Source: Candidatus Latescibacterota bacterium (GTDB lineage: Bacteria; Latescibacterota; UBA2968; UBA8231). Taken from it: a stretch of DNA of 64,000 nucleotides. Below the pieces are notes generated by a model, which did not search any database, had not been told where the DNA came from, and was given only the letters and a program-made list of their open reading frames with translations. Of this stretch, positions 38,837 through 60,372 are shown in pieces. Position 1 is the stretch's first letter. Every line of letters starts with the position of its first letter. The translations under genes and the position numbers were made by a program. The stretch spans positions 2,816,001 to 2,880,000 of the forward strand of contig OZ241867.1 of NCBI GenBank assembly GCA_965203175.1, read 5' to 3'.

Positions 38837-39019
38837 CTTGGAAGGCTCCTTGATGGACGGAGAAGGTGGTTGGCGGCCAAGTTACGGGAGGGGGAGAGGA
38901 GACGCAAGCGTTGAGTGTCGTTGGTTGGCCAGGTGGGATGCATCCATTCTTTTTGCACAAGTTGGTCCCTCAAACCATTTTATCAGCCCAAACGCAAGAC
39001 CACTTCAAAGGAGGAGACC

Positions 39020-41503
39020 ATGGGCACCTACACACCGCTGGACTTGAACTCGCTGTACAATGCCGGGTTGGACATCTTGGGAGGCCAAGGGCCGCTCGGC
39101 GCACAAAGCTTTCGCGGCTTGCCCTTTGCGCTCGGCAGCGATGCTGGGCGCTGTCTGATCGCTTGCAATGGAGAGCGGTCCGGTGTGGAAATACCGGTTG
39201 GTCGTCGGGTGACTTGGATGATTGTGGCGCATCGCCTGTTGGAATCGCGGATTGCCGAGAATGGGCCGCTGGCGACGCTGGTAGCTGAATACGCGCTGCA
39301 CTACGAGGACGGCGAGGTGCTCAAGGTGCCCGTGCGCGACCGCTTTGAAATTTCGACTGTGCCGTCGTCGTATGGTGGCACGCCGTTTGTGGCGGTGCCC
39401 GATACGAGCGATCAGCTCTTGCCGCGCACTGAAGGTCCGTGGGATATGGCCGGGCGTCGTCAGACTGAGGTCGATGGCGGGCGCGCGCAGAACTTCGTGC
39501 TCTGGGCGTGGCCGAATCCGCACCCAGACAAGGAGCTGGAGAAAATCGTCATCGAGGCCGCGGGCCCGGCCTTTGTCATCGGCGGGATCACCCTGAGCGA
39601 TTTGGACGAAGAGCCGATCTGCCGCGAGGGCACGCGCGAGGTCATTATCACTCTGCCGCAAGAGGAGGACGCGCGCGAGTCCGCTGCTCTTGAAGTAGAG
39701 GTTGATCGAGGCGTTGCGACCTATCCCTATCCATTGCCGGAGGCAACGGCCGAGGATTTTATCGATGGGCGCAAAGGCTGGGGTGAAGCCCAAAACGAGG
39801 GTAGCAGCCCTTCATACCTGGAAATTGCCGCCAATCCTTCGGCCACTGTGCAGGTTAAGCGAGACGGAGAAGTTTTGGGCGAGGCTAGCTGGGGGGAGGT
39901 GCGGCAGCAGGGCCGCGTAGAGGCTTCGCCGCGAGTGCAGATAGAAGTGGTGGAGCGCGGGCGCAACTGGGTGCACACTAAGGTCATTGACGACGCCACG
40001 GGAAAACCCGTGCCCTGCCGCGTCCACTTCCGCTCGCCGGAGGGCATTCCCTACGCTCCGCACGGCCACCACGCCCACGTCAACTCCAATATGGGGACTT
40101 GGCACTTCGACGTGGGCGGCGATGTGCGCTTGGGGCAGATCACGTATGCGTATATCGACGGCACCTGCCAAGGCTGGCTGCCGCGCGGCGAGGTGATCGT
40201 GGATGTGGCGCGAGGCTACGAATACGAGCCGCTGCGCACCAAAGTGGAGATCGAGCCCGGTCAGCGCACCTTGGAACTGCGATTGAAGCGCTGGCGGCAG
40301 ATGAATGAGGAAGGCTGGTACAGCGGCGACTCGCATGTGCATTTCCTGTCGGCGCAGGGCAGCCTCACCGAGGCGCAGGGCGAGGATTTGAACGTGGTCA
40401 ATTTGCTGCAATCGCAGTGGGGCGGGCTGTTTACCAATACCGAAGAATTTACCGGCGGCGAGATGGCCACGGACAATGGCGATTACATTGTCTATGTGTC
40501 CCAAGAAAACAGGCAGCACTTTTTGGGGCATTTGATCCTCATGGGACTAAAGGAACCGGTGATGCCGTGGTGTTCGGACGGTCCGGGCGAAGCCGAGTTG
40601 GGCGGGACGCTCGAAGTGCCCATGGCCGAGTGGGCCGACCGCTGCCGAGCGCAGGGCGGCAGTGTGGTGATCCCGCATTTGCCCAGCCCCAACGGCGAGC
40701 CAGCCGCCCTGATTGCCACCGGGCGAGCCGACGCCGTGGAGATGCTCCGACACGGCACGTACATGCACGGCGAGTACTACCGCTACCTCAATTGCGGCTA
40801 CAAGCTGCCGCTGGTTGGCGGTACGGATAAAATGAGTAGCGACGTGCCGGTGGGTATCTATCGCACCTACGTGCAGATCCCCAAGGACGAGCCATTCACC
40901 TACGACAACTGGTGCAAGTACATGGCTGCGGGCCGCACCTTCCACAGCGGCGGCCCGCTGATCCGCTTCAGCGTCGATGGCCACGAAGTGGGGGACACGG
41001 TGCAGTTACCGGGTAATGGCGGCACGGTGGAGGTGCTCGCCGAGGCCGAGTCGGTGGTGCCAATCCACACGTTGGAAGTGGTGCAGGAGGGGCGGGTGGT
41101 AGCCTCTGCGGAAGAGACTAAGGGAACGCGCAAGTTGAGCCTGAAGGCCGAGGTAAAAGTGGAAGGCCACTCGTGGCTAGCGGCGCGGTGCAGCGGGCCG
41201 GGCTACGAGCAGAGCGTGCCGCACTTTGATGGCTGGGGGCGGGGGATCATGGCGCACACCTCGCCGGTGTATCTGGCCTGCGGCGGCGAGTGGTGGATGT
41301 TCAACCAAGAGACGGCGCAGTACATGCTGACCTTAGTGGATGGCTCACTGCACTACATCCGCCACAACAGCCGTCTGCATTTGCGCGACGACATTACGCA
41401 CCACCACGGCGAGGAGGATCACCTCGCCTATCTGGAGCGGCCCTTCCTCCAAGCGCGGGAGGCGATCCATCGCCGGATGCACCAGTTGGGGGTGCCGCAC
41501 TAA
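39020..41503 (+). CDS. CehA/McbA-family PHP-like metallohydrolase, paralog 1
   Basis: AAGGAGGAG RBS; GDSHVHF, QENRQHFLGH, PHLP, YRYLNCG, GGTDKMS, AHTSPVY. Confidence 0.85.
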   Translation: MGTYTPLDLNSLYNAGLDILGGQGPLGAQSFRGLPFALGSDAGRCLIACNGERSGVEIPVGRRVTWMIVAHRLLESRIAENGPLATLVAEYALHYEDGEVLKVPVRDRFEISTVPSSYGGTPFVAVPDTSDQLLPRTEGPWDMAGRRQTEVDGGRAQNFVLWAWPNPHPDKELEKIVIEAAGPAFVIGGITLSDLDEEPICREGTREVIITLPQEEDARESAALEVEVDRGVATYPYPLPEATAEDFIDGRKGWGEAQNEGSSPSYLEIAANPSATVQVKRDGEVLGEASWGEVRQQGRVEASPRVQIEVVERGRNWVHTKVIDDATGKPVPCRVHFRSPEGIPYAPHGHHAHVNSNMGTWHFDVGGDVRLGQITYAYIDGTCQGWLPRGEVIVDVARGYEYEPLRTKVEIEPGQRTLELRLKRWRQMNEEGWYSGDSHVHFLSAQGSLTEAQGEDLNVVNLLQSQWGGLFTNTEEFTGGEMATDNGDYIVYVSQENRQHFLGHLILMGLKEPVMPWCSDGPGEAELGGTLEVPMAEWADRCRAQGGSVVIPHLPSPNGEPAALIATGRADAVEMLRHGTYMHGEYYRYLNCGYKLPLVGGTDKMSSDVPVGIYRTYVQIPKDEPFTYDNWCKYMAAGRTFHSGGPLIRFSVDGHEVGDTVQLPGNGGTVEVLAEAESVVPIHTLEVVQEGRVVASAEETKGTRKLSLKAEVKVEGHSWLAARCSGPGYEQSVPHFDGWGRGIMAHTSPVYLACGGEWWMFNQETAQYMLTLVDGSLHYIRHNSRLHLRDDITHHHGEEDHLAYLERPFLQAREAIHRRMHQLGVPH

Positions 41504-41571: not shown

Positions 41572-44061
41572 ATGAGCGATTCGTTTGTACCGTTGGATTT
41601 GAGCGCAACTTACAACGCTGGCACTGGCAATGTTGAGTCTGAAGACGGCAAACTCTGGCCGGCACCCGACGACGCGCCCGACAATACGCCGCTCGTGGGG
41701 CTGCCCTGGGGTGAGCATCAGTTTTGGGGCGTGCCCTTTAGCTTGGCAGCCGCTGGGGCTGACCGGGCCGTGGTACTGGTAGCGCAAGAGGCTGGAGACG
41801 AGTTGAGTGCGTCGGTGGAGATCCCGGTAAACGACAAGGCGCGGCGCATCCTCTACGCCCACACTTGTGCGCCGGTGTCGGGAGAATGGGCCACGGTCGA
41901 AGGCACGGGCGAGGAGATTGGGACCTATCGCGTCCTCTATGCCGATGGTAGCTCGGTCGAGCAGCCATTGCGCCGTCGCTTTGAAATCCACGACGTGCAG
42001 ATACCTTGGGGGCATCATCCCTTTCTCTGCCGCAATTGTCGCCACTACTACTCGATACCGCTGAACAGCCGCGAGCACAGCTATGGCATGGCGCAGACTG
42101 GGGCCCTTACGCGCGAAGGCGGAGACCTCCAGGGTTGGTGGCTCTACGACTGGGAAAATCCCGCACCCGACAAGGAGATTGCGGCGATTGAAGTATCGGC
42201 GGCTGGTCCTACGGCGCTAGCTTTGGCCGGTATTACTCTCTGCCACGAGGAGTGCGATCCCTTTGCTTGGCCGGCGCGGCAGGAAGTGGTGCTACGGGTC
42301 GATGCCGAAGGAGCGCCCGAGGTGGCGATGGAGCGCGGCGAAATCGTGCGCCAGGATCAGCTCTGGGTGCCGAGCGCGGATTTTCTCACTTCCGAGGAGG
42401 CGGGCTGGGGCAGGGGTGGACAGGAGACGGTCGATGGTGGCTATCTGGAAATCCATGGATCAACAGAAGGGCAACTCGCCATCACGGCTGGGGACGACGT
42501 CGAAGAGCGCATTTGTTGGGGTGACGTGCTGAAAGAAAAGAAGGTCGCCCAGGGGAAAGTGCGTATTGAGGTCGTCGCACCGTCCGGCAAGCAGTGGGTC
42601 CACGTGCGGGTCGAGGACGCGGATACCGGCCAGCCCGTGGGAACCCGCGTCCACTTCCGCACTGAGAACGGAGCCTATCTGGCGCCGCACGGGCACCAAG
42701 CCGACGTCAATGTGGCGTGGTTCGAGGACATGGGCGGCGACTGTAAGACCGGGGGCGTGCCCTACGCGTACATCGACGGCACCTGCCAGATCGACTTGCC
42801 CATCGGCCCGGTGTACGCCGAGGTCGTGCGCGGTTTTGAATATCAGCCGCTGCGTCAGCAAGTTGAGATCAAGCCTGGACAAAACGCGCTGACCCTCAAG
42901 GTCAAACGCGCCTTTGACATGAAACAGCGCGGGTACTATTCGGGGGATACCCACGTGCATTTTCTATCCTCTCAGTCGTCGCGCCTAGAGGCCGAAGGCG
43001 AAGACCTCAATGTGGTGCATTTGTTGGCCAGCCAGTGGGGTCGGCTGTTTACTTCGTGGGAGGAGTTTACCGGCGGCTTGGCACCGACTAGCAGTGACAA
43101 TCACTTGGTTTGGGTCAGCCAGGAGAACCGGCAGCACGTACTTGGGCACATTAGTTTGCTCGGCCTCAAGGAACTGGTCGCGCCGATGTGTACCGGCGGG
43201 GCCAATGAGGATTGGGTCGGCGGCTCGGTGGATGCGCTGATGGCCGATTGGGCCGAAGAGTGCAAAAAACAGGGCGGGCTGGTCATTATGCCGCACATGC
43301 CGCTGCCCGACTTTGAGAACGCGGCCAACATCGTCTTGGGCCACGCTGACGCCGGCGAGATGTGCTGGATTTGGGAAGGCGAGCAGATCAGTTCGGCTGA
43401 GCTGGGCTACTACCGCTGGCTCAACGTGGGTCAGAAGCTGCCGATTGTCGGAGGCACGGACAAGATGTCCAATAACCGCATTTTGGGCGGCTCGCGCACG
43501 TACGTCAAGCTGCGCGATGACGAGGAGTTTACCTTTGACAATTGGTGCCAAGCCGTGCGCCGCGGTCAGACGTTTGCCAGCACTGGCGCGATGATTGATC
43601 TGAAGGTCGAGGGGCGGGAGATGGGCGAGGAAATCCACCTGCCCGGCAACGGCGGTACGGTCGAGGTGGTGGCGACCGCGGAAAGCGTCTGGCCGCTTAC
43701 TGGGCTGGAGCTGATTTGCAATGGCGAGTCTGTTGCGCGCGAAGCCGCCGCGCCCGGTGCCCAGCAGATCGAACTGAAGTTCAAGCTCAAGGCCAGTCGT
43801 TCCTGCTGGGTCGCGGCCCGCTGCTGGGGGCCACATTATACGGACGCCGGGCCGGTGATGGCCCATTCTTCGCCGGTCTATATCGACGTAGGAAGGCGCT
43901 GCGTGTTTGCGCCGGCGGAGGGCAATTATCTGCTGACGCACATGGAAGGTGGCATTGCTTGGGCCGAGAGAATCGGCGTCTTCCGCGACGAGGCGATCCG
44001 CCAGCGGCTGATTGGCCTGTTTAACGAGGCTCGGGGCGAGTTGCTCCGGCGAATGCAGTAA
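41572..44061 (+). CDS. CehA/McbA-family PHP-like metallohydrolase, paralog 2
   Basis: GDTHVHF, QENRQHVLGH, PHMP, YRWLNVG, GGTDKMS, AHSSPVY; collinear with paralog 1. Confidence 0.85.
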   Translation: MSDSFVPLDLSATYNAGTGNVESEDGKLWPAPDDAPDNTPLVGLPWGEHQFWGVPFSLAAAGADRAVVLVAQEAGDELSASVEIPVNDKARRILYAHTCAPVSGEWATVEGTGEEIGTYRVLYADGSSVEQPLRRRFEIHDVQIPWGHHPFLCRNCRHYYSIPLNSREHSYGMAQTGALTREGGDLQGWWLYDWENPAPDKEIAAIEVSAAGPTALALAGITLCHEECDPFAWPARQEVVLRVDAEGAPEVAMERGEIVRQDQLWVPSADFLTSEEAGWGRGGQETVDGGYLEIHGSTEGQLAITAGDDVEERICWGDVLKEKKVAQGKVRIEVVAPSGKQWVHVRVEDADTGQPVGTRVHFRTENGAYLAPHGHQADVNVAWFEDMGGDCKTGGVPYAYIDGTCQIDLPIGPVYAEVVRGFEYQPLRQQVEIKPGQNALTLKVKRAFDMKQRGYYSGDTHVHFLSSQSSRLEAEGEDLNVVHLLASQWGRLFTSWEEFTGGLAPTSSDNHLVWVSQENRQHVLGHISLLGLKELVAPMCTGGANEDWVGGSVDALMADWAEECKKQGGLVIMPHMPLPDFENAANIVLGHADAGEMCWIWEGEQISSAELGYYRWLNVGQKLPIVGGTDKMSNNRILGGSRTYVKLRDDEEFTFDNWCQAVRRGQTFASTGAMIDLKVEGREMGEEIHLPGNGGTVEVVATAESVWPLTGLELICNGESVAREAAAPGAQQIELKFKLKASRSCWVAARCWGPHYTDAGPVMAHSSPVYIDVGRRCVFAPAEGNYLLTHMEGGIAWAERIGVFRDEAIRQRLIGLFNEARGELLRRMQ

Positions 44062-44207: not shown

Positions 44208-44255
44208 TCGATCCCTATGCGTACCCACCACTCACTACTAACCGAAACGAATCCC

Positions 44256-45140
44256 ATGCTCAACCAAGCACAAATCGATGAATTTCACCGCAACGGCTTT
44301 CTCAATGGCGGGCGGGTACTCTCCGACGAGGAGCTCGGCGAATTGAGCGACGCGCTCGACGAAATCTTGGACAAAGGCCCCGATGGCTTTGCCCCCGGTG
44401 AAGCGCAGCCGGTATCCTTCCGCGACCTAGCCGGCGGCGGTGGCGTCAGCGACCATCCCGTATGGCAGATCGTCAATATCTGGGAAGCTGCGCCCGCTTG
44501 GGAGCGGCTCATTTACCAGCCGGCTGTCGTGCGGGGGATCAGTCAACTCACCGGCCATGCCGATCTCCAAGTCTGGCACGACCAGATCCAGTACAAACCC
44601 GCGCGCTACGGCGGCTCAACCCACTGGCACCAAGACGCGCCCCTGTGGCCGATTATCAAGCCAATGACGCCGGTCTCGGCGTGGATCCCCTTGGACGACG
44701 CGACCGAGGAAAACGGCTGCATGTGGATGGTGCCCGGCAGCCACAAGTGGGGCAACCAGATTGCATTTTTGCGCACGCAGGGCGATTTGTCGCTGTTGGA
44801 AAACTTCAAGGATTTACAGGGCTTTATTCCGCCGGCCGACGCTGAGATCCGCGAGGTGGCAGCGCGGCCGTGTCCGGTGATGCGCGGGGAGGTGTCCTTC
44901 CACCATTCCATGACTTGGCACGGCTCGCCCTTCAATCAGTCGCCGCGACCTCGGCGCGCCATTGCCGTCCACTACATGACCGGCGCGGCGCGCTTCGACC
45001 AAAGCGGCGAGCACTTGATGAAGCAGTTCGTCGATTTGCCCGACAATGCGCCCATGGCCGAGGCTGGCCCGCACTTTCCGGTGGTGTGCCGCAATGGGGA
45101 GCCGGTGGGGGTACCGGAGCGGTTGCGGGTGACGAGCTAA
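44256..45140 (+). CDS. PhyH-family dioxygenase (start 44256 or 44217)
   Basis: F..NGF, WHDQIQYKP, WHQD, WIPLDDATEENGCM..VPGSH, TWHGS..N.S..PRR. Confidence 0.92.
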   Translation: MLNQAQIDEFHRNGFLNGGRVLSDEELGELSDALDEILDKGPDGFAPGEAQPVSFRDLAGGGGVSDHPVWQIVNIWEAAPAWERLIYQPAVVRGISQLTGHADLQVWHDQIQYKPARYGGSTHWHQDAPLWPIIKPMTPVSAWIPLDDATEENGCMWMVPGSHKWGNQIAFLRTQGDLSLLENFKDLQGFIPPADAEIREVAARPCPVMRGEVSFHHSMTWHGSPFNQSPRPRRAIAVHYMTGAARFDQSGEHLMKQFVDLPDNAPMAEAGPHFPVVCRNGEPVGVPERLRVTS

Positions 45141-46383: not shown

Positions 46384-46545
46384 GGAGCCCTCCTTCAACT
46401 GCGTTTGAACGTCTCGCCGATAGCTAAAGTTCCGCGTATAGATAAAGTAATCGCCTCAGGGGCGGTCCTCCAGCCAGTGCTGAAAGAAGCCGCGTCCGTC
46501 GGTTTGCTTGCTAGACGGAATGCTTGGGGCCGATATTGGAACGCT

Positions 46546-49500
46546 ATGACTGCGCTGATTGCCTTTTTGGTCGTTTTTGCTATCGGCCCGGTGGCGGCTT
46601 CTACAGGGCCGCGGGCTGTTGTGGAGCATCTGTCCTCGCTGGGATCGCGGGTGGCGGGCTATCCGGGGAGTGCTCAGGCGGCGGAGTATATAGAAGGGCA
46701 GTTGCAGGCGTTGGGACTGGCGACGCGACGCGACTCCTTTGCGGTGGTGGTGCCGATGGACCGGGGCGGACGGTTGGAATGGGAAGATGAGTCGGTCGCT
46801 TTGTACGCGGTGTGGCCGAATGGGGTGCGGACTTCGACCGTGCCGCCGGAGGGGTTGCGAGTGCCAGCGATTTGGGGTGGTGATGGGAATTGGGGGGATT
46901 TTAATGGGCGGGAGGTGGCTGGGCGGGTGGTGGTGCTGGACTTTGCCAGTGAGGACGCTTGGTTGAAGGCCGCGTCGTTGGGGGCGCGGGCGGTGGTGTT
47001 TGTGGCTGCGGAGTCGGCTACTACGCAGCAGGCGCAGGGCAAGTACGTGCAGGTACCGTTGGATGTGCCGCGCTTTTGGGTGGAGGGGGCCGCTGGGGAG
47101 CGGCTGCGGCGGCGGTTGGTAGATGGAGAGGTGGAGGTGGGGCTGTGGGGGCGGATGGATTGGCAGAAGCGGATGGCGTACAACGTGTGGGCGGTAGTGC
47201 CGGGGAAGGATGCGGGGACCTTGCGGGATAAGACAGTGCTCGTCCATGCGTATTACGACGCGCCGTCGGTGGTGCCCGCGCGAGCACCAGGGGCAGAGGC
47301 GGCGGTGAGCGTAGCGGCGCTGTTGGAGGTGGCCACTCGCTTGCGAGAGAACCCACCGGCGCACACGGTGATACTCGCCGCGCTGAGTGCCCACTTCCAA
47401 GGGCGGCAGGGCATGGTCGCCTTTCTCGACAGGCACGCCCGCCGCCAAGAGCACTACGCGGCCCGGCTCGCCGAGCCGCTGGATATTGCCCTGTTCATTG
47501 GCCTCGATTTGTCCAGCCACGGCGAGCGGGTGGTGCTGTGGAACAACACGGACAGCTACGCGCTCAAGCGGTTTTTCGTGCCCTTTGGCCGTCGCTTTAC
47601 CGAGTACGCGGAGGCACTGGGCCGCGGCGAGGCAGTGGCCAATGGCATCAGCCCAATTCGGGGGATGGATTGGGACAGCTACATGCCCGGGGGGTTGGCC
47701 GCCGATGGGGAGTTGGCGCTCGAGGCGGGATTTCCGTCGCTGACGCTGGCCACGGTGGGCGACGCTCGTTTTGCGCTGGATTTGCCGCTGGGCGAGAAAC
47801 TGGCGTGGGATAATGTGGAAGGACAGGCGGCGTTAGTGGCCGATCTGCTGGCTCATGCGTTGGCCGATACGGCGCTATTGGCTGGGCGGGAGCGGCTCGA
47901 GGCGGTGTTGAAAGATCGGTTGCGGGATTTGCGGGTCAAAGCGCGGACGTTCCCCCGGCGCAGTCAGGTGCCGGACCGGCCGGTGGCCGGGGCGCTGGTG
48001 GCGGTGCAGGTGGAGCAAGAAGAGCGCAAAGGAGTGCGCGACGTGCGCTACTTTCTCACGGATGCCGCTGGGCTGGCGCGGGTACCTGGGCTGGTACAGG
48101 GGACGTATCCGCTGGTGGTAGCGGTGCTGAACGCCGAGCGGGGGACGCTTACTCACGTAGTGAACTTGAGTAAGCGCGCGCAAGCGCACCACGGGAAACC
48201 GCGGGCGGATGGTCGCTTGGCCAAGAATGTGCGCTGGCTGCAAAACGAGCAGATCGCCGTGCTATTTCCCGGAGTGGGTCGTCCCCTGTACGGCTTGGTC
48301 GAGCCGCGCCTTTTGCGCGCGTTGAACCAAGTAAAAGTGTTGTCGGCGGCCGGGAGCGAGCCGGGCCAGTACGGGTACGCGCTGGGTTCAAGCAGCATCG
48401 GCTCGGTGGGGGTGATCTACGGGCCGGTCGATGCCACAGCCGGCGACCGCGTCAAAGTGATTTTGGACGGTCAGTTTTTGCTGCTCAACAGCGAGGGCAG
48501 CCAAAGCGAGGCCGAGGCGCGGGGCCAGGGGTTTCTGCTGATCGAGGAGGGATTTGGGAGCGCGACGCTACAGGCGGCGCGGGACCTGTGGAACTTGGAT
48601 GCGGCGCGGTTGGGGATACTCAAGGAGCACGGCATTGAAAATCAGCGGTTGACGCGCCTGCACGCGCAGACGGCGACGGCCATAGCCGAGGCGGAAGTAG
48701 CGGCTGAGCAGCTAAAGTGGGATGAGCACGTGGCGTGGAGCCGCAAGGCGCTGGGCTTGGAGACGCGGGCCTATCCAGAGGTCTTGGCGACGCTCAACGA
48801 CGTCCTCGAAGGGGTGATCTTCTTTATGGCGCTGTTGTTGCCGGCAGCCTTTTTCGGGGAGCGGCTGTTGTTTGCCGCGGCCGATATTCGCCGGCAGCTC
48901 GCTGGCTTTGGGCTGTTATTGCTGGCGATTTGGCTGATTTTGGCGCAGGTGCATCCAGCCTTTGAGTTGGCCGAGCCGCTGGTGGTGCTGTTGGCGTTTG
49001 CCATCATGGCAATGGCTGCCTTCGTGCTCTTTATGCTGGTAAGCCGGTTCAATCGCGTCATGGCCCAGCACCAGAGCCAACAGATGCGGGTCCACACCCA
49101 AGACCTGAGTCGCTTGAGCGCGAGTTATGCGGCCTTCATGTTGGGGATTTCCAATATGCGGCGGCGCCCCTTGCGCACCGGTCTGACACTGGCGACGCTG
49201 ACGCTTTTGACGTTTACCCTGCTCTCTTTTACCTCGTTTGAACAGCAAATCCGCTACGCGAGTTTCCGGCTGCCTCACGCTGGAGCGTACCCCGGAATCC
49301 TCATCCGCGACCGCGGCTGGGAGCGCCTGACGCCGGAGGCGCTCGATTACGCCGAGTCGCACTTTGGCGGCAGCGGCTGGATGGGGCGGCGCGGTTGGTA
49401 CGCGGCCGAAGGCGGCAAGGGAGGCTGGATCGCGGTGGCGGCAGCAGGGAACGCAGTGCGGGCCACGGGTTTGTTGGGCCTGACGCCGGAGGAGGCGCAG

Positions 49501-52500
49501 ATCACCGAGGTGGATAAGAGCTTGGTGGCCGGGTCGTTTTTTGCCGCGGATGACGAGGCTACCTGCATCCTGCCATTGGACATGGCTGAGGCGTTGGGCG
49601 TCGGGGTTGGGGACCAGATCGAGGTGTTCGGGCGCGCGCTGGAGGTGCGCGGGATTGCCGACTCAGAGCGGTTGGGTGAATTGCGCGACCTCGACGACGA
49701 GAGCATGATGCCAGCCGATTTTGTCCTGTCGAGCGCAGAGATGCTTCAGCTAGGGACGGCGCAGGACGTGGATATTGCCAGCGAGGAGGAGCTACGCGAA
49801 CTGCGGCCCTTCATCCACCTAAAGCCGCACCACGTGGTCCTCGTACCCTATCAAACGCTGGCCGAGGCCGGGGGCAGCTTGCGCTCGGTGGCCGTGCGCT
49901 TTCCAGAAGCGACCGACGGGCAGGCGCTGGTCGAGGACTATCTGACGCGGGTAGCGGTTACCTTGTTCGTCAGCTCGCCGGCAGGGGAGGTGATGGCCCT
50001 CAGTTCGGTGGGACTGACGGCTGTGCAGGGGCTGGGGGCGCTGGCGATTCCTGCGCTGGTGGCCGCACTCATTGTACTCAATGCGATGCTGGGGGCGGTG
50101 TACGAACGCCTGCGCGAGATCGGCATCTACTCTTCGGTGGGGCTGGCACCCTTGCACATCGCGCTGCTGTTTGTGGCCGAAGCCTGTGTCTATGCGGTGC
50201 TGGGGACGACGTTGGGCTATTTGTTGGGTCAGGGGTTGGGGAAGGTGCTGTTGGCGCTGGGGCTGTTGCAGGGCATTACCCTGAACTACTCGTCGCTGGC
50301 GGCGATTGGGGCCGCGCTGGCGGTGATGGGGGTGGTGTTGCTATCGACGATCTATCCGGCGCGGCAGGCGGCGCGGCAGGCGGTGCCAGACGTGGTGCGT
50401 CGCTGGCGGCCGGACCCGCCCAGCGGCGACGAGTGGCTGTTTGAGTTCCCCTTCATGCTCGGTGAGGGAGAGGTCGAGGGGGTGTGCGGCTTTTTGGCCA
50501 ACTACTTTGGGGCCTTTGGTCGGGCGACGCTGGGGGATTTTTACGTCGAGGATATGCAAGTTGCGCAGGCCGATGGCTATCGCCTCTCGTTTACCCTATG
50601 GCTGGCCCCGTTTGACTTGGGAGTGAGCCAAGAGGTGGTCGTGGAGTTCGCGTCGGCTGGTGCGCGCACGCGGGCGATGGAAGTCCGGTTGCGCCGACTG
50701 AGTGGCGAGCATCACTACTGGCAGCGGCTCAACCTGCGGCTGGTAGAGGCCCTGCGCAAGCAGATGTTGATTTGGTACGCACTCCGGGAGGCCGAGCGCG
50801 TCCAGCACGTGGAGTCAGCGCGGGCGCTGGCAGCCGAGCAGACCGAGGAGCGCGTGGAGGAACAATCGGGAGCGGAATCGCCGGTGTCCTTTACTTGGCG
50901 GGGGTTTGCCGTGGGGGCGCTGTTGGCCTTGTGCATCGGCGTGGGGGCACCCTACGCGATAATTATGCTGCAAGGGTCGTACATGGCGCTCAACAGTTCG
51001 TCACCCGGGGCGATCTTTCTGTTTTTTATCTTGGTGGTGGTGGTCAATACCCTGCTACGGGCGCTGGGCCGCGGCCTCGCCTTGGGGCGGGCCGATTTGG
51101 TGCTCATTTACGCGATGATGCTGTTGGCCTCGGCCGTGCCGACGCAGGCATTTGTCGGCTACCTGATTCCGATCATCAGCGGGCTGTACTACTACGCGAC
51201 CCCGGAAAACAACTGGGGTGACATTTTCTTTCCGCACGTGACGCCGTGGCTGGCGCCGCAGGACCGACAGGCGATTGTCGATTTGCACGAGGGGCTGCCG
51301 CCCGGGGAGGGCATTCCGTGGGCGGCTTGGAGCGAGACCCTGAGCTATTGGTACGTGTTCTTTTTAGTGCTGAGTTTTATGATGCTCTGCATGAGTTCCA
51401 TCCTGCACCGGCAGTGGTCGCAGCACGAGCGGCTGGCCTATCCCATGGTGCAACTGCCGCTCAAGATGGTAGAGGAGGGCCGGCCGGGGTCTAAGCTGGG
51501 GCCGCTTTTTAAGCAGCGGCTGTTGTGGATCGGCTTTGCGGTGCCGTTTGTCTTGTTGTCGCTCAAGGGGCTGCACTACTACTTCCCGGCAGTGCCACTG
51601 CCGATCCAGTCGGCTGGGCAACTGCCGTGGATCGGCACTAAGCTGAATTCGCATTGGGTGTATGCGTGGATCGGCTTTTTCTATTTGGTCAACTTGGATA
51701 TTTCCTTTTCAATTTGGTTTTTCTACCTCTTCAACAAGGCGCAAGAGGGGATTTTCTCCTCGTTGGGCATTGCCAGTACCGAAAAGCTCAGTCTCTACTC
51801 CTACTCGCAGACTGCGGATCTGACGCACGAGGTGATGGGGGCCTGTCTGATTTTTGTTGGCTATACCTTGTGGATGGGGCGGCGGCACTTGGGGGCGGTA
51901 TGGCGCAAGGCGTGGCGCGGCGATCCGACGGTGGATGATTCAGGAGAAATGCTTTCCTATCGGGTGGCGTTCTTTGGCTTTTTGGCCAGCCTGCTTTTCG
52001 TGGGCGTGTGGCTGTGGGCGTCTGGGGTGCCGCTGGCGATTTTGCCGCTGTTTTTGCTAGTGTGCTTGATCTTCTACGTGTTCGTCACGCGGGCAGTAGC
52101 CACGGCCGGACTAGCGACGGCGCGCTCGCCGATGGTGGCGGCGTTTTTCGTCATTTCCGCGGTTGGCGCACCGGTGATTGGTGCCAAGGGGCTGACGGCC
52201 CTGACCTTTACCTACGTCTGGCAGTCTGAGATGCGGCTTTTTCCGATGATTGCCGCGGCCAATTCGCTCAAGCTGGCCGAGGCGGTGGTTGGCTCTAAAA
52301 GGCGGCTGTTTTGGGGGATGGCGCTGGCGTTGGTGGTGAGTTTAGCCGGGGCGACGTGGATTATTTTTCAGGTGTGCTATGAGCACGGCGGGATCAATTT
52401 GCATCCGTTTTTTATGACCCGTCAGGCCAATCGCACGTTTACCGATATGGCGCGGCCGATCGTCGATCCGCTGCCAGCCGATATGCGCGGTTGGTTGTTC

Positions 52501-52803
52501 ACCGGCATCGGCGGACTCTTTGAGGCCGTGCTCTTGTGGGGACATCATCGGTTTTACTGGTGGCCGTTGCACCCGCTGGGGTTTATCGTCAGCGTTGGCT
52601 GGCTGGCTAATCAGGTGTGGTTTTCGGTGTTCATCGCGTGGGCGCTCAAGTTGGGCATTGTCAAGTGGGGTGGGATGCCGCTCTACGAGCGGGCCAAGCC
52701 CTTTTTCCTAGGGCTGATTTTGGGCGAGGCGACCGCGGCCGGATTGTGGCTGTGCATCGATGGCGTGTTGGAAGAAACCGGGCATTTTCTGTCGTATATG
52801 TGA
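46546..52803 (+). CDS. ~2085-aa fusion: degenerate M28/PA ectodomain + MacB/FtsX permease + DUF6785/6784-type multipass domain
   Basis: N-terminal ~1430 aa are collinear with 2779..7386 and C-terminal ~640 aa with <1..1803; one uninterrupted frame with a charged linker at ~50790-50890; signal peptide at ATG 46546. Confidence 0.85.
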   Translation: MTALIAFLVVFAIGPVAASTGPRAVVEHLSSLGSRVAGYPGSAQAAEYIEGQLQALGLATRRDSFAVVVPMDRGGRLEWEDESVALYAVWPNGVRTSTVPPEGLRVPAIWGGDGNWGDFNGREVAGRVVVLDFASEDAWLKAASLGARAVVFVAAESATTQQAQGKYVQVPLDVPRFWVEGAAGERLRRRLVDGEVEVGLWGRMDWQKRMAYNVWAVVPGKDAGTLRDKTVLVHAYYDAPSVVPARAPGAEAAVSVAALLEVATRLRENPPAHTVILAALSAHFQGRQGMVAFLDRHARRQEHYAARLAEPLDIALFIGLDLSSHGERVVLWNNTDSYALKRFFVPFGRRFTEYAEALGRGEAVANGISPIRGMDWDSYMPGGLAADGELALEAGFPSLTLATVGDARFALDLPLGEKLAWDNVEGQAALVADLLAHALADTALLAGRERLEAVLKDRLRDLRVKARTFPRRSQVPDRPVAGALVAVQVEQEERKGVRDVRYFLTDAAGLARVPGLVQGTYPLVVAVLNAERGTLTHVVNLSKRAQAHHGKPRADGRLAKNVRWLQNEQIAVLFPGVGRPLYGLVEPRLLRALNQVKVLSAAGSEPGQYGYALGSSSIGSVGVIYGPVDATAGDRVKVILDGQFLLLNSEGSQSEAEARGQGFLLIEEGFGSATLQAARDLWNLDAARLGILKEHGIENQRLTRLHAQTATAIAEAEVAAEQLKWDEHVAWSRKALGLETRAYPEVLATLNDVLEGVIFFMALLLPAAFFGERLLFAAADIRRQLAGFGLLLLAIWLILAQVHPAFELAEPLVVLLAFAIMAMAAFVLFMLVSRFNRVMAQHQSQQMRVHTQDLSRLSASYAAFMLGISNMRRRPLRTGLTLATLTLLTFTLLSFTSFEQQIRYASFRLPHAGAYPGILIRDRGWERLTPEALDYAESHFGGSGWMGRRGWYAAEGGKGGWIAVAAAGNAVRATGLLGLTPEEAQITEVDKSLVAGSFFAADDEATCILPLDMAEALGVGVGDQIEVFGRALEVRGIADSERLGELRDLDDESMMPADFVLSSAEMLQLGTAQDVDIASEEELRELRPFIHLKPHHVVLVPYQTLAEAGGSLRSVAVRFPEATDGQALVEDYLTRVAVTLFVSSPAGEVMALSSVGLTAVQGLGALAIPALVAALIVLNAMLGAVYERLREIGIYSSVGLAPLHIALLFVAEACVYAVLGTTLGYLLGQGLGKVLLALGLLQGITLNYSSLAAIGAALAVMGVVLLSTIYPARQAARQAVPDVVRRWRPDPPSGDEWLFEFPFMLGEGEVEGVCGFLANYFGAFGRATLGDFYVEDMQVAQADGYRLSFTLWLAPFDLGVSQEVVVEFASAGARTRAMEVRLRRLSGEHHYWQRLNLRLVEALRKQMLIWYALREAERVQHVESARALAAEQTEERVEEQSGAESPVSFTWRGFAVGALLALCIGVGAPYAIIMLQGSYMALNSSSPGAIFLFFILVVVVNTLLRALGRGLALGRADLVLIYAMMLLASAVPTQAFVGYLIPIISGLYYYATPENNWGDIFFPHVTPWLAPQDRQAIVDLHEGLPPGEGIPWAAWSETLSYWYVFFLVLSFMMLCMSSILHRQWSQHERLAYPMVQLPLKMVEEGRPGSKLGPLFKQRLLWIGFAVPFVLLSLKGLHYYFPAVPLPIQSAGQLPWIGTKLNSHWVYAWIGFFYLVNLDISFSIWFFYLFNKAQEGIFSSLGIASTEKLSLYSYSQTADLTHEVMGACLIFVGYTLWMGRRHLGAVWRKAWRGDPTVDDSGEMLSYRVAFFGFLASLLFVGVWLWASGVPLAILPLFLLVCLIFYVFVTRAVATAGLATARSPMVAAFFVISAVGAPVIGAKGLTALTFTYVWQSEMRLFPMIAAANSLKLAEAVVGSKRRLFWGMALALVVSLAGATWIIFQVCYEHGGINLHPFFMTRQANRTFTDMARPIVDPLPADMRGWLFTGIGGLFEAVLLWGHHRFYWWPLHPLGFIVSVGWLANQVWFSVFIAWALKLGIVKWGGMPLYERAKPFFLGLILGEATAAGLWLCIDGVLEETGHFLSYM

Positions 52804-52925: not shown

Positions 52926-55598
52926 ATGCGGAGCATGGATGCGGACTTGGCCGGTCTAATGCGCCTATTGGGGACGGCGGCCCTGAGCCTCGTCCTCGTC
53001 AGTTCGCTCGTCATCGGGCAGGCGGCATGGTCCGAGGAAGCTGAGACGGAGGAAGAGGACGAGGAAGGGGCCTATACCGAGGACATCTATCTGATGGAAG
53101 AAGCCATCGTCGTGGGGTCGCGCCACGCGCCGCGCTCGGAGAAGGAGTCGGCCGCGCCCGTAGATGTGCTGAATGCCGACCAACTGCGCACGCAGGCTGC
53201 GGTCGATATGGACGACATGCTGCGCACCCTGGCTCCGTCGTACAATATTCAGCGGCACGGTATTGACGACGAAGCGACCTTGGTGCGCCCGGCCACGCTG
53301 CGGGGCCTGCCGCCGGACAACCTGCTGGTGCTGGTCAACGGCAAGCGCCGCCATCGCTCCGGCGTAATCGCACTGCTGGGCAGTTCGCTCAATACGGGGT
53401 CGCAAGGGCCGGATTTGAGCGTGATCCCGGCCATTGCCTTGACGCAAATGGAACTGCTGCGCGACGGCGCGGCGGCCCAGTACGGATCCGACGCCATCGC
53501 CGGGGTGCTGAATCTGCGATTGCGCGAAGCCTCCGAAGGGGTGCTAATGGAATCGCGAGCAGGCCAGTACTTCGAGGGCGACGGCCGCTTGTCCCAAGTC
53601 GCGGCCAATGTCGGCCTGCCGCTTAGCGAGGACGGTTTTTTCAACGTCAGCGTCGAGTACCGCCAGAGCGATCCAACCATCCGCAGTGGTCAACGCACCA
53701 ATGCGGAGACGCTGAGAAATAGGGGCTATCCTGTCAAAGAGCCGGCGCAGATTTGGGGCAGTCCCGACCTCGACGGCGTGTGGAATACTTTTTTCAACAG
53801 TGGAGTTGATCTCGGCAATGGATCTGAAGCCTATAGCTTCGGTGGCTGGGCCAAGCGCCGCGCCGAAGGAGGCTTTTTCTTTCGCGCTCCGGGTACTTCC
53901 TCGGCGCGCAGCAGCGTATTTCGCATTGGCGATCAGCGGGCCGTAGCCGATCTCGATCCCGACGACGATGTTGATCCTGCGAACTTGGAAGTGCCCTCTC
54001 TGGACGCGCCCTTCCAAGAGGTCGAGGGTTTTGTCGAGCAGTATAAGGACGATCTCTTCCTATTCAACGAGCGCTTTCCCGGTGGTTTTACGCCGCGCTT
54101 TGGAGCCGACATCCTCGATATGAGCTTGGTGGCTGGCCTGCGCAGTGCCCGCTCTGGCGGCCTCAAGTGGGATGCCAGTGTCAGCGCCGCCCGCAGCAAT
54201 ATCGAATTTTTCATCTTCAATACCATCAACGCCTCGCTGGGGCCGGACACGCCGACATCGTTCCGCCCGCGCGACTACATCCAGACCGAAGTCGCGGCCA
54301 ACCTCGACTTCTCCTACGCGATGGAGGTGGGTGGTTTGGCCTCGCCGCTCGGCCTCGCTTGGGGTGCGGAATGGCGCCAAGAGACGTTCGAGTCCGTGGC
54401 TGGCGATGAAGCCTCCTACGTGGTGGGCCCCTTTGCGCCCCAGGGCTTTAGCAGCGGTTCCAATGGCTATCAGGGGCTGCACCCAAGTAACGCCGGCAAG
54501 TGGGATCGCCCCAACTATGCCTTGTACGTGGATTTGCAGGCAGACGTAGTGCCGCAGCTCCAGCTAGGCACGGCCGTGCGCTACGAGGATTTCTACGCCG
54601 ATTTTGGCAATACCCTCAACGGCAAGCTCTCGGCCCTGTTGCGGGCTAGCGACCGGGTCAACCTGCGCTCGACGGTTAGCACTGGGTTCCGCGCTCCGTC
54701 GCCCGGCCAGGCCAATCTCCGCGCCGTGACCACCGGCTTTTCCGGCACCGGCGGCTTGACTGAGCAGGGGCAGGTGCCGCCCACCCATCCCATAGCCGCG
54801 GCCTTGGGCGGTGAGGAACTGACTGAGGAGAAGTCCGTGGGATTTTCCGTCGGCACCGCCATGGAACTCACCGACGATTTCGATCTGACCCTCGACTACT
54901 TCGCCATTGACATCGAGGACCGCATCGCCCTGACCGGAAATATCAAGATCACCGACCAAATCGCCCAGATCATCCGGGACGATGAATCCCTCCAGGGCGT
55001 CAGCGTCCTCCAAGAGGTCAAGTTCTTCTCCAATGACTTTGATACCCGCACCCAGGGTATTGACTTGGTGCTGTCGTGGACGCGGACGTGGAACCCCCAA
55101 TCCCTGTCTCACATCGATGTCGCCTATAACTGGACCCGGACCACGCTTGAGGACTTTTCGCAAGAGCGGACAAGAGACGAATTTCTGGGCAAACCCTTGG
55201 ACGAACCGATCAAATTCAAACTGATGACGCCCCGGCGCGAGGTGGAACTGGAGGAAATGAACCCCGAGCACCGCTTGGTGGTTACCGGCAGTCACCAAAT
55301 GGGCGCTTGGAGCGGTATGCTGCGGCCCAGCTACTTCAGCGCTTGGAAAGCCTGCCGCTTCCAAGACAACAGTTGCGGTGATCTCGACGCCTTTGACGGA
55401 GGCGTCATTGTCGATGCCGAAATAGGCTATGCCTTTGGCGATAGCTATCAGTTGAGCTTGGGGGCGCAGAATATTTTAGACTCAGTGCCCGAAACCGCGC
55501 CCGAAGAGACCGCAGGCCAGGGCAATCTGCGCCCGGAAAGCACGCCTTGGGATTACAATGGTGCTTTCTGGTACACGCGCTTATTTGTGGAATTTTAG
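52926..55598 (+). CDS. TonB-dependent receptor, substrate unknown
   Basis: GGAGG RBS; VVGSR, LRGLPPD..LVLVNGKRRH, LRDGAAAQYGSDAIAGVLN; C-terminal Phe. Confidence 0.93.
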   Translation: MRSMDADLAGLMRLLGTAALSLVLVSSLVIGQAAWSEEAETEEEDEEGAYTEDIYLMEEAIVVGSRHAPRSEKESAAPVDVLNADQLRTQAAVDMDDMLRTLAPSYNIQRHGIDDEATLVRPATLRGLPPDNLLVLVNGKRRHRSGVIALLGSSLNTGSQGPDLSVIPAIALTQMELLRDGAAAQYGSDAIAGVLNLRLREASEGVLMESRAGQYFEGDGRLSQVAANVGLPLSEDGFFNVSVEYRQSDPTIRSGQRTNAETLRNRGYPVKEPAQIWGSPDLDGVWNTFFNSGVDLGNGSEAYSFGGWAKRRAEGGFFFRAPGTSSARSSVFRIGDQRAVADLDPDDDVDPANLEVPSLDAPFQEVEGFVEQYKDDLFLFNERFPGGFTPRFGADILDMSLVAGLRSARSGGLKWDASVSAARSNIEFFIFNTINASLGPDTPTSFRPRDYIQTEVAANLDFSYAMEVGGLASPLGLAWGAEWRQETFESVAGDEASYVVGPFAPQGFSSGSNGYQGLHPSNAGKWDRPNYALYVDLQADVVPQLQLGTAVRYEDFYADFGNTLNGKLSALLRASDRVNLRSTVSTGFRAPSPGQANLRAVTTGFSGTGGLTEQGQVPPTHPIAAALGGEELTEEKSVGFSVGTAMELTDDFDLTLDYFAIDIEDRIALTGNIKITDQIAQIIRDDESLQGVSVLQEVKFFSNDFDTRTQGIDLVLSWTRTWNPQSLSHIDVAYNWTRTTLEDFSQERTRDEFLGKPLDEPIKFKLMTPRREVELEEMNPEHRLVVTGSHQMGAWSGMLRPSYFSAWKACRFQDNSCGDLDAFDGGVIVDAEIGYAFGDSYQLSLGAQNILDSVPETAPEETAGQGNLRPESTPWDYNGAFWYTRLFVEF

Positions 55599-58843: not shown

Positions 58844-60372
58844 AGCAGATGCGCCAAGATCACGGCGAGCAATAAGCCGAGCGAGACCCAGCCAAGCAGG
58901 ATTTGGACGCTGGCGAGGAGTTTGAGCTTGCCAGTCGCGTACCAGGGGTAGGGATCGGTTCGGGTGAAGGCGTGGATGCTGAAGCGTATGCAGTCGGCGA
59001 GGGTGGGGTGTTCATCGCCGTTGACGGACTGCAAGATACTAGGGACCAGCCGATAGATCAGCGCCCAAAGGAGGATGCTGCCGAGGATGCAGAGGACGAG
59101 TTGTAGTGGGGAGGTGCCGTAGCGCGAACAGAGATTCCACAACTCTAACGTCCAACGTTGGGGCACGGCCCAGCTAAGGGCGCGGCGCTGGCGGTCTAGA
59201 CGCTCGACCTCGCAGGCTACAGCGTCGTCTTTTAGCCCTTGGGCGAGGAAGTGATGCCGCAGGCTGTTGTAGGCCGGGTCGAGTGCGGCGACCAACGTCG
59301 AGTCCGTAGTGGCTAGGCGGTGGCGCATGTGCGCCCAGCGGACGCGGAGGAGATCAAAATAGGCTTGCTGCAAGTAGAGTTGGGCGCTTGCGGCAAAGGT
59401 CGAATCGGCTTGGGCACTTGGGTGCAGATCGAGGGTGCCGATAGCGGCGCGGCGCAGGTCGAGGGTGCGGTTGAAAAAGGAATTGAAACGCAGGGTCCGC
59501 GCTTGGACGCCGCTAAAATCGGCTTCTTTGCGGAAGTAGCTGCCGCCAAAATCCGCGCGGGCAAAGTCCGCATCGGCGAAGTGGGCGGCTTGGGCAAAGG
59601 TGAAGTCGGCGAAATGAGCTTGGTCGGCGAAGGTGGCTCGGTTGAAAGAAATCTCCCCGTCGGCGCGGGCCGCGGCAAAGTCGGCCGCGGCGAAAAACTG
59701 GGTTCGCCAGAAGAGGGCGCGTTCGGCAAAGCGGGCACCGGCAAAGGAAGCCGGGCCATTCCAACGGGCGTCCTTGAAGGAGGCTACGCCGGCAAAGCGG
59801 GCGTCGGCAAAGTCGGTCTGGCCGGCGAAGTGAGTGCCTTCAAAGTAGGCAGCGGTCGCAAAATGGGTGCGGACGAAGCGGGTGGCAGCGGCGAAACGGG
59901 CGTTGATAAACGAATTGGGACCAGCGAAATCGCCGTCGGTAAAGTCGGCGTCGGCACCGAAGACGGCCTGTTTGAAATTGAGGTGCTTGCCAGACCGGCT
60001 TGCGCGCAGGCCGAATGCGCTGTGGAAATGGGCATTTGTTAGCGAGAGACCGTTGGCGAATGTGGTGCGCTCACCTTGCACCGGACCGAGGAAGACCACG
60101 TTGTTGAGGGTGACCTCGTCTAAGAAAAAGACATCGTCGAACTGGAGAGAGGCGCGCACGGTGTCGAGACCGGCAGTTGGAGCGTAGAGCGGGCCGACGA
60201 CAGCGGTGGCGCGGAGGTGGATCGGCTCTTGTGCCCGTTGTAGCCTCGAGAGCAAGTCAGCCGCCGGAAGCAGGGCATAGGTCTGGTCGGCGATGGTGGT
60301 GTCGGCGCGGTCAGCGCGTGCGCCAAGCGGTATTAGGAGGAGGCAGCAAAGCGCCCACAGGGGGGTGACCAT
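58840..60372 (-). CDS. Pentapeptide-repeat protein with C-terminal two-TM ion-channel-like domain
   Basis: AxF/xxF repeats (ADFAAARA, AHFADADF); YG..P..L TM1, FSI..FT pore-helix-like segment, final TM. Confidence 0.78.
   Translation of the reverse strand: MVTPLWALCCLLLIPLGARADRADTTIADQTYALLPAADLLSRLQRAQEPIHLRATAVVGPLYAPTAGLDTVRASLQFDDVFFLDEVTLNNVVFLGPVQGERTTFANGLSLTNAHFHSAFGLRASRSGKHLNFKQAVFGADADFTDGDFAGPNSFINARFAAATRFVRTHFATAAYFEGTHFAGQTDFADARFAGVASFKDARWNGPASFAGARFAERALFWRTQFFAAADFAAARADGEISFNRATFADQAHFADFTFAQAAHFADADFARADFGGSYFRKEADFSGVQARTLRFNSFFNRTLDLRRAAIGTLDLHPSAQADSTFAASAQLYLQQAYFDLLRVRWAHMRHRLATTDSTLVAALDPAYNSLRHHFLAQGLKDDAVACEVERLDRQRRALSWAVPQRWTLELWNLCSRYGTSPLQLVLCILGSILLWALIYRLVPSILQSVNGDEHPTLADCIRFSIHAFTRTDPYPWYATGKLKLLASVQILLGWVSLGLLLAVILAHLL

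Follow-up and report, generated by a model that had tools for sequence, protein, structure and literature searches.

Type VII ABC systems such as MacB, LolCDE, FtsEX and YtrF expel or extract substrates or switch periplasmic enzymes, and in MacB the region around the sequence ERxxEIG is a helix that touches the ATPase. To our knowledge, no type VII system is coupled to a secondary-transporter fold. The ectodomains of nicastrin, nicalin and the transferrin receptor act as substrate receptors. The abstracts we retrieved describe the OPT family as carrying oligopeptides, glutathione and metal chelates by proton-coupled symport. Here, we analyze a stretch of 64,000 nucleotides (the window) from a Candidatus Latescibacterota bacterium (contig OZ241867.1, positions 2,816,001 to 2,880,000, forward strand), in which a single gene at window positions 46546-52803 joins a degenerate M28-like peptidase head and a MacB/FtsX-type permease to a multipass DUF6785/DUF6784 protein. 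Some loci have these two families fused, and others have them as separate but linked genes. We give a probability of roughly 45% to the composite reading that these proteins form, together with an engine encoded in trans, an inner-membrane machine for the uptake of peptide-like ligands. The machine would be specific to Latescibacterota and some neighbouring lineages.

Throughout, the giant (G) is a protein made of a PA/M28-like head, a MacB/FtsX permease and a C-terminal domain; D is a DUF6785/6784 protein; and C is a divergent paralogue of D. The plus-strand frame of the fused gene is open from 46405 to 52803 (2132 codons), and domain residue numbers refer to this frame. The ATG at 46546 is likely the true start (2085 amino acids), because orthologues of 2088-2139 residues begin at the matching methionine, and their N-termini at this residue resemble signal peptides. 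The single-frame fusion of the original prediction is confirmed, and its coordinates, 46546-52803, are likely those of the gene. Pfam domains follow one another as Peptidase_M28 (PF04389; residues 260-386, 25.6 bits, cut-off 21.3), MacB_PCD (PF12704; residues 1013-1107, 25.3 bits, slightly below the cut-off of 27), FtsX (PF02687; residues 1214-1325, 49.3 bits, cut-off 25.5), DUF6785 (PF20581; residues 1497-1995, 414 bits) and DUF6784 (PF20580; residues 2030-2124, 100 bits), the last two above their cut-offs. The gene and its parts are as follows.

46546-52803 (+): fused gene, encoding a signal peptide, PA/M28 pseudo-peptidase head, MacB/FtsX permease, cytoplasmic C-terminal domain and DUF6785/6784 OPT-like permease (Pfam, orthologue starts)
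46582-47844 (+): periplasmic PA and M28 aminopeptidase-like head, residues ~60-480, catalytic positions substituted (Pfam, head profile)
47845-48774 (+): further periplasmic sequence and putative helical stalk, residues ~481-790 (kept among the seven paralogues)
48781-49239 (+): three extra hydrophobic helices (~793-877), cytoplasmic loop and first transmembrane helix (TM1) of FtsX (927-945) (hydropathy scan)
49240-50043 (+): candidate MacB-like periplasmic core domain between TM1 and TM2 (sub-cut-off MacB_PCD match, alignment to MacB 5nik)
50044-50379 (+): FtsX TM2-TM4 with the conserved ERxxEIG segment (Pfam FtsX, PDB sequence matches)
50380-50856 (+): family-specific cytoplasmic C-terminal domain, ~160 amino acids, motif WLAPFDLGVSQ (AlphaFold2 model)
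50857-50892 (+): short acidic linker, the fusion junction (translation, independent contigs)
50893-52776 (+): DUF6785 plus DUF6784 multipass permease, OPT/YSL-type fold (Pfam, AlphaFold2, Foldseek)

Independent coverage and uninterrupted homologues both bear the fusion out. DNA contigs from two studies span 49900-51899 with no insertion or deletion near the junction. One, of 17.5 kb, differs from the window at 9 positions; the other, from a relative, differs at 98 and has, some 800 bases past the junction, a +1/-1 pair whose two changes cancel out. This pair, an insertion and a deletion of one base each, lies within the D module at window positions 51647-51652, the two changes being five bases apart; because it restores the frame, it reflects strain variation rather than a break. 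When long proteins were searched with the DUF6785 part, 35 of the 36 relatives found (counted as protein clusters) carried both FtsX and DUF6785, at 52-96% identity, and for one of these relatives the source record gives the name M28 family peptidase, from Candidatus Latescibacteria. An assembly artefact or stop read-through at the junction is ruled out by the contigs from two studies, by 12 other fused loci and by these 35 uninterrupted protein clusters.

The middle part of the protein is a type VII permease, as predicted. Its FtsX module matched MacB (5nik, E = 1.6e-7), YtrF and LolC among PDB sequences, and the FtsX domain of a free-standing giant in the same window scored 50.6 bits (cut-off 25.5). 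A hydropathy scan resolved a signal peptide, three helices behind the head, FtsX TM1, a periplasmic part of ~268 residues, TM2-4 and a cytoplasmic tail. The ~268 residues separate the hydrophobic segments 927-945 and 1214-1232, and it is here that the sub-cut-off MacB_PCD match falls. The motif GISNMRRRxLRT is conserved directly ahead of TM1, and within the ERxxEIG segment 21 giants show no change at E, R, I or G. Taken with the topology of MacB, the order of the hydrophobic segments indicates a periplasmic head and a cytoplasmic fusion point, which is consistent with a fusion that joins the cytoplasmic C-terminus of the giant to D. The C-terminal domain itself is predicted by AlphaFold2 (predicted local distance difference test, pLDDT, 86.6) to have a beta-alpha-four beta-two alpha layout; it is not a nucleotide-binding domain.

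The head is related to M28 aminopeptidases, and the catalytic positions that could be aligned are substituted. Its profile matched aminopeptidase 2ek8 (E = 6e-15 over 277 positions), YwaD (6hc6, E = 3.3e-13), nicalin (E = 6e-6) and, very weakly, nicastrin (E = 0.94); a single-sequence search found no solved-structure relative of the head, and it was the profile search that recovered these matches. Aligned with 2ek8 and YwaD, the head has Tyr (AYYD) where the H-x-D motif has its His, and His-Phe in place of the Glu-Glu pair (His-His in one giant paralogue); we take the H-x-D His and the Glu-Glu pair to be zinc-ligand and catalytic residues of M28 enzymes. The head thus departs from the signature of an active M28 metallo-aminopeptidase at the aligned His and Glu-Glu positions, and its M28/PA homology is significant by both the PF04389 score and the profile match to 2ek8. 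The PA domain (PF02225) of the free-standing giant came in slightly under its cut-off (23.4 against 23.9 bits), and in the fused protein a CarboxypepD_reg match to residues ~481-790 lay below threshold (17.2 bits, cut-off 32.3). 'Pseudo-peptidase', the label given to the head from the sequence alone, is a fair reading of this alignment, and the lost catalytic residues suggest a receptor, not an enzyme.

The D module was modelled by AlphaFold2 with a pLDDT of 83.9 and a predicted template modelling (TM) score of 0.87. Searched against the PDB with Foldseek, the model gave matches at E ≤ 1e-3 to barley Yellow Stripe 1 (YS1) alone (7wst and 7wsr; E = 1e-7 to 6e-7, probability 1.00, TM-score 0.61-0.68, identity 14-15%), and the next match dropped to E = 0.024 with a TM-score of 0.09-0.13. 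By sequence, the D profile found no solved relative in the PDB, and PF03169, the Pfam family of OPT transporters, gave no match to D at E ≤ 0.01. Four of 12 C proteins gave a weak PF03169 match (best E = 1e-5), and protein clusters of the Atlas mix PF03169 and PF20581 annotations. Since the fold of D matches YS1 alone, D is assigned to the OPT/YSL superfamily, and we read D and C as divergent members of it, in line with the OPT-like character first proposed for DUF6785/6784.

Both halves of the fused gene have free-standing paralogues at the other end of the window.

1-1803 (+): free-standing DUF6785/6784 gene of the split locus, 5' end cut by the window edge (full gene L016:9900-11804)
2779-7386 (+): free-standing giant of the split locus, 1535 amino acids (FtsX domain, near-cut-off PA match)

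The two genes lie 976 bases apart on the same strand (under 1 kb, as the original prediction had noted), and all four motif pairs that it quoted as shared are present in the translations. The split D scores 333 bits for DUF6785 and 79 bits for DUF6784, both above the Pfam cut-offs; its full gene begins about 100 bases upstream of the window, and the split giant is 38-39% identical to the fused one. That gene list was right about D and the giant and overlooked a third gene between them: an alpha-type ('eukaryotic-type') carbonic anhydrase on the opposite strand (window 1794-2588, minus; Pfam 153.8 bits).

The pairing is general in this genome, which holds seven giants with 33-53% mutual identity. 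All seven (six free and the fused one) have a D gene 18-942 bases away on the same strand, and in 20,000 random placements none put all six free giants within 1.5 kb of a D gene. An all-against-all comparison of the seven giant loci showed that the giant, D and C alone recur across most of them. C, which emerged from this comparison as the third recurrent gene, encodes a multipass protein of ~660 amino acids on which no Pfam family was found at E ≤ 0.001. It is related to D (BLASTP E = 7e-7; hhalign probability 95.6% over 566 columns), it forms one clade with support of 100 in a tree of 61 D and C proteins, and its five copies in the genome all lie in giant loci (5/5). With C confined to giant loci and giant-linked D genes scattered through the D family, C is the dedicated partner, whereas the D neighbours of giants are drawn from a large transporter family. 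The proposed two-part set of giant and D therefore stands as far as it goes and is incomplete, having missed this more exclusive partner. In two C copies (L011:13164-16391 and L013:13477-15897), an insertion lies between residues ~545 and ~582 of the 660-residue form; the insertion in the L011 copy contains PDZ domains and brings the protein to 1075 amino acids, and many C genes in other genomes encode 800-1080 amino acids.

We then scanned one genome per species, which gave at least 586 giant loci, and examined the best 80, from ~75 assemblies, using hidden Markov models (HMMs) built from our own alignments. Most of these loci carry a Latescibacterota label, and submitters assigned some to Gemmatimonadota, Omnitrophota or Armatimonadota. 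A D or C gene lay within 10 kb of the giant in 79 of the 80 loci (67 of the 68 unfused), the exception being a 3-kb contig without flanking sequence, and the linked reading frames mostly overlap or abut. The gene orders were distributed as follows.

D>G>C: 22 loci
G>C: 17 loci
fused G-D: 12 loci
D>G: 10 loci
G>D: 3 loci
other: 16 loci

One locus counted as unfused, L038:9662-16566, has its giant and D in different long overlapping frames; it may represent a fusion broken by a frameshift, an error in the sequence or a true G>D pair. In a FastTree phylogeny of 86 giants, from which fragments were dropped (HMM score below 800, model end not reached, or fewer than 500 residues; L041 and the split L092 are examples), all 13 fused giants fall into a single group requiring one change, with SH-like support of 85. 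Branch lengths within this clade reach 0.54, and two long branches are ~51% identical to the window copy. We read this as a single fusion event kept through substantial divergence, with the moderate support that a value of 85 gives; several independent origins are unsupported, the tree requiring one change.

Among 121 sampled genomes of the phylum, with the C-terminal domain as the giant marker, D was present in 107, the giant marker in 107 (1-9 copies each) and both in 106. One genome gave D without the marker and one the marker without D; these two genomes are 57% and 67% complete. The 13 genomes of family f10 yielded neither D nor the giant marker. Since related genomes are not independent samples, this co-occurrence amounts to one joint presence/absence event rather than statistical proof, and it is consistent with a shared function. 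First-look candidates for D numbered up to 68 per genome in relatives. Lower-scoring Atlas matches include DUF6785 clusters from archaea and FtsX-containing proteins of ~1000 amino acids from Thermoproteota, which we note as leads; giant-like Atlas clusters of 1371-1863 amino acids run under generic names, and in one of them 19% of members carry LysM.

The claim that the two families co-occur and adjoin thus holds, and from fusion and linkage taken together we consider a functional or physical partnership between the giant and an OPT-like permease quite likely. The linkage half of the predicted partnership survives, and the idea that DUF6785 is a dedicated partner does not, since 48 of the 56 copies in this genome lie away from giants. 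In a complex prediction for one unfused pair (L014, giant residues 1240-1548 with its D), the score was 0.21 (mark 0.32), obtained from our own alignments with a guessed giant segment and without controls; this result speaks neither for nor against binding.

A possible engine came from a minority of loci. In eight of the 80, a gene for a LolD/MacB-type ATPase lies near the giant on the same strand. Four of these (L062, L067, L072 and L085) have G-C followed by a 220-residue, FtsX-only permease and then the ATPase, and in L067 the giant, C, small permease and ATPase genes abut; in the other four (L046, L048, L056 and L058) the ATPase precedes D-G-C. The genome studied here has an orthologous pair far from all its giants, a small permease (L097:6076-6777, minus) and an ATPase (L097:5279-6055, minus) that is 60-77% identical to the ATPases of giant-linked loci. 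Both fall below the NCBIfam cut-offs for LolD, FtsE, MacB and FtsX, and the ATPase is of the LolD/MacB/DevA type. With only ~50 residues between TM1 and TM2, the small permease is without a periplasmic domain of its own. It is single-copy in 101 of the 121 genomes. Searches recovered it neither from the 13 f10 genomes nor from seven genomes that do hold giants, each of these seven being no more than 89% complete. In four genomes with a single giant (G005, G011, G016 and G035), the gene comes 3.5-4 kb after that giant. Gene order and phyletic pattern therefore lean slightly towards an engine encoded in trans, with one pair serving all giants of a genome. The ancestral arrangement may have been a G-C-small FtsX-ATPase cluster, in which the giants multiplied and the engine stayed single and became unlinked.

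We propose that the parts would work together as follows. The dead-peptidase head would capture a peptide-like or glycopeptide-like ligand in the periplasm. Energy would be supplied in trans by the minimal FtsX permease, which lacks a periplasmic domain, and the LolD/MacB-type ATPase. ATP-driven mechanotransmission through the MacB-type periplasmic domain would then move or unload the head, and an OPT/YSL-fold partner, either D or C and covalently fused in one clade, would carry the ligand inward across the membrane, presumably by proton symport, the mode of OPT transporters. In the split forms, the giant and its partner would have to meet as separate proteins. Uptake of peptide-like ligands is the more tentative part of this proposal, and we hold it at somewhat less than even odds. 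A fuller version makes the system a hybrid of primary and secondary transporter, in which a heterodimeric type VII motor, built from one giant, one minimal FtsX half and two LolD-type ATPases, drives a nicastrin-like receptor by ATP-powered mechanotransmission that loads an OPT-fold, proton-driven permease, with one engine for up to nine interchangeable giant/permease cassettes. This follows the same logic as TonB serving many receptors; taken in full detail, it is rather doubtful.

Several observations weigh against an uptake machine with a shared engine. The first concern its energy source. ATP drive, which the original prediction assumed, is unreadable from the locus: none of the seven giants in this genome has an ABC ATPase gene (PF00005) within 10 kb, 72 of the 80 loci are without a nearby ATPase, and the partner ATPase is drawn from other lineages. 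The case for a trans engine is built on linkage in a minority of lineages plus a phylogenetic profile, and the profile of the small permease comes down to essentially one independent event, family f10. The L097 pair also sits among glycosyltransferase and rhamnose-pathway genes, which weakens uptake. In the giant's C-terminal domain, a Foldseek search of the PDB found no match at E ≤ 1e-3, only weak Bet v 1/START-like similarities with TM-scores of 0.25-0.41. In the head, the last two metal ligands are unreliably aligned, so that the M28 active site is compared in its first part and some residual metal binding may persist.

Other points concern D. Of 56 DUF6785 genes above the Pfam cut-off in this 6.58-Mb, single-contig genome, one is fused, and the 48 without a giant nearby show that D is not a dedicated partner. 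The eight giant-linked D genes are scattered in the D tree (eight changes for eight rows, equalled in 500 of 500 shuffles), which rules out a specialized giant-linked subfamily, and the closest paralogue of the fused D is a stand-alone gene (60% identity). We looked at the neighbours of 20 stand-alone D genes, taking same-strand genes within 200 bases (20 of 48 listed neighbour genes). They include gamma-glutamyltranspeptidase, sulfatase and esterase genes, and because they are heterogeneous among the 20 examined, no substrate class emerges. None of the 12 fused loci has a C gene nearby; C and D may therefore substitute for each other instead of belonging to a three-part set. A TonB-dependent receptor gene follows the fused gene (window 52926-55598, plus) after 123 bases, and a tblastn match to it was found in one of the 12 other fused loci (L017). 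Being unconserved, it is no evidence for uptake and is ruled out as a conserved partner; elsewhere the next gene directly follows the fused gene, so that the receptor looks like a recent insertion. Finally, expression of the fused gene is hinted at by metatranscriptome contigs from one library, which flank the junction at 49983-50660 and 50898-51263 without bridging it, belong to a relative that differs at 34 of 582 bases and could reflect DNA carry-over.

We weighed four other explanations, the first of which is unlikely. In it, the giant is an envelope-remodelling regulator akin to FtsEX-EnvC, whose head switches periplasmic hydrolases while the OPT-like permease recycles (muro)peptides, so that the system would serve wall or surface turnover, not nutrient capture. 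The FtsX/MacB-type module fits such a role, and a degenerate peptidase on an FtsX motor parallels the degenerate LytM domain of EnvC. The LysM members of one giant-like Atlas cluster, the M55 D-aminopeptidase gene between giant and D in L015 and the polysaccharide neighbourhood of the small FtsX/ATPase pair would also suit it. However, the fused and split giants of the window carry no LysM domain, no peptidoglycan hydrolase recurs in the loci, and one to nine giants per genome with fast-diversifying heads suit varied ligands better than one housekeeping task.

It is quite unlikely that the proteins are co-regulated members of one pathway that remain physically independent, the fusion being an accident tolerated in one clade. 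Giant-adjacent D genes form no distinct subfamily, the fusion seems to have arisen once, and gene order varies (D before, D after or C after the giant), all of which this explanation would accommodate. Against it, the fusion has stayed intact across lineages that have diverged to ~51-57% identity, linkage is near universal and mostly through overlapping or abutting frames, and C is restricted to giant loci in this genome.

An exporter is less probable still. Here, a lipid-linked or peptide product would leave through the OPT-like conduit and the MacB-type module would expel it from the periplasm, as in MacAB or LolCDE. Characterized type VII ABC systems do move substrates outward from the membrane or periplasm, and the small FtsX/ATPase pair does lie in a polysaccharide-synthesis neighbourhood. 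Yet neither a MacA-type adaptor gene nor one for an outer-membrane channel is recurrent in the loci, the sampled stand-alone D genes include some beside catabolic enzymes, and the abstracts describe OPT proteins as proton-coupled symporters. A sensor or flux detector of the BceAB-BceS kind, in which the giant and the OPT-like protein report ligand load to regulators with little net transport, seems highly improbable: type VII permeases do pair laterally with polytopic membrane proteins, as BceB does with BceS, and a regulator gene follows the giant in L012 and the cluster in L067, but regulators are not recurrent neighbours (only the giant, D and C recur across most of the seven loci), and D and C have a full transporter fold, D being massively expanded as stand-alone genes.

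Set beside the known systems, the giant resembles type VII ABC permeases in its FtsX C-terminal domain with ERxxEIG and perhaps in a MacB-like periplasmic core between TM1 and TM2, for which the Pfam match is slightly sub-cut-off; the candidate ATPase is of a kindred type, and a possible heterodimer of the giant with the small permease, two unlike permease halves, would recall LolC/LolE. It differs in having ~800 extra N-terminal residues, three extra transmembrane helices and its own cytoplasmic C-terminal domain, in being encoded at most loci without an adjacent ATPase gene, and in being linked or fused to an OPT-fold permease. D shares the fold of YS1, and weak PF03169 matches appear on some C proteins; unlike OPT/YSL transporters, D has 56 copies in one genome, 14-15% identity to YS1 and an ABC-type permease for a partner. 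Nicastrin (in gamma-secretase), nicalin (in the BOS complex) and the transferrin receptor likewise carry a substituted M28-like domain outside the membrane on a polytopic complex, whereas the giant's head is bacterial, is a covalent part of an ABC-type permease and is accompanied by neither an intramembrane protease nor a translocon. In TRAP and TTT systems, an extracytoplasmic receptor feeds an ion-driven permease and the parts are sometimes fused. These systems have no sequence or fold relation to the giant, whose receptor is tethered to the membrane on an ABC-type mechanotransmitter with, as we infer, ATP input. BceB, too, is a type VII permease complexed with a polytopic membrane protein, but the partner of the giant has a transporter fold and is not a histidine kinase. 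Like the orphan FtsX permeases called ADOP, giants are encoded without an adjacent ATPase; they are not duplicated permeases, and the weak match to TIGR03434 (ADOP) is far under its cut-off (18.9 against 622 bits).

The proposal that began this work is, overall, partly supported. Its claim that the architecture was undescribed agrees with our literature search, in which no abstract described DUF6785/DUF6784 or an FtsX-M28-OPT architecture, and OPT abstracts came from plant and fungal papers only. The folds are known; the combination of a type VII permease, a nicastrin-like head, an OPT-fold permease and a probable trans engine is new as far as our searches and recall go. If the uptake machine is real, it would represent a new working mode for type VII systems, in which mechanotransmission feeds a permease. 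It would also give a first functional handle on DUF6785/6784, which occurs in dozens of copies per Latescibacterota genome and also in archaea, and would supply a bacterial dead M28 ectodomain acting as a receptor of a membrane complex, a counterpart to eukaryotic nicastrin and nicalin. The run labels for this stretch are those of sponge metagenomes; if the organism is sponge-associated, the system may bear on the harvest of host- or seawater-derived organic matter.

The surroundings of the giant loci hold some further genes. Upstream of the fused gene, two paralogous genes (window 38915-41503 and 41572-44061, plus) encode proteins of 862 and 829 amino acids that are 41% identical and belong to no Pfam family, followed by a PhyH-type dioxygenase gene (window 44217-45140, plus). 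Eight of the 12 other fused loci keep this order of two paralogues and PhyH, among them the divergent L042 (70-73% identity). D genes lie partly in tandem pairs (for example 3855425/3857506, 3888376/3890426 and 5406351/5408577 in the genome). A family of SurA-like peptidyl-prolyl isomerases, with ~35 members of 450-640 amino acids, is also expanded (for example in L105, L108 and L112, L016:1940-3817 and window 60372-62066, minus). Six of 35 paralogues lie within 3 kb of D or C, one of them immediately ahead of the split locus's C gene; we set the family aside as a recurrent D partner on account of this weak enrichment. The D-aminopeptidase gene between giant and D in L015 is at 11769-12596 (minus; Peptidase_M55, 216 bits). 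In L012, the gene directly after the giant encodes a sigma-54 activator with Reg_prop repeats, and in L067 a GGDEF/GAF protein gene follows the G-C-small FtsX-ATPase cluster. Upstream of the L011 giant are two tandem genes for WD40/PD40 beta-propeller proteins of 1180 amino acids that are 78% identical to each other (L011:1795-5346 and the gene preceding it; genome positions 4436225-4443345 for the two).

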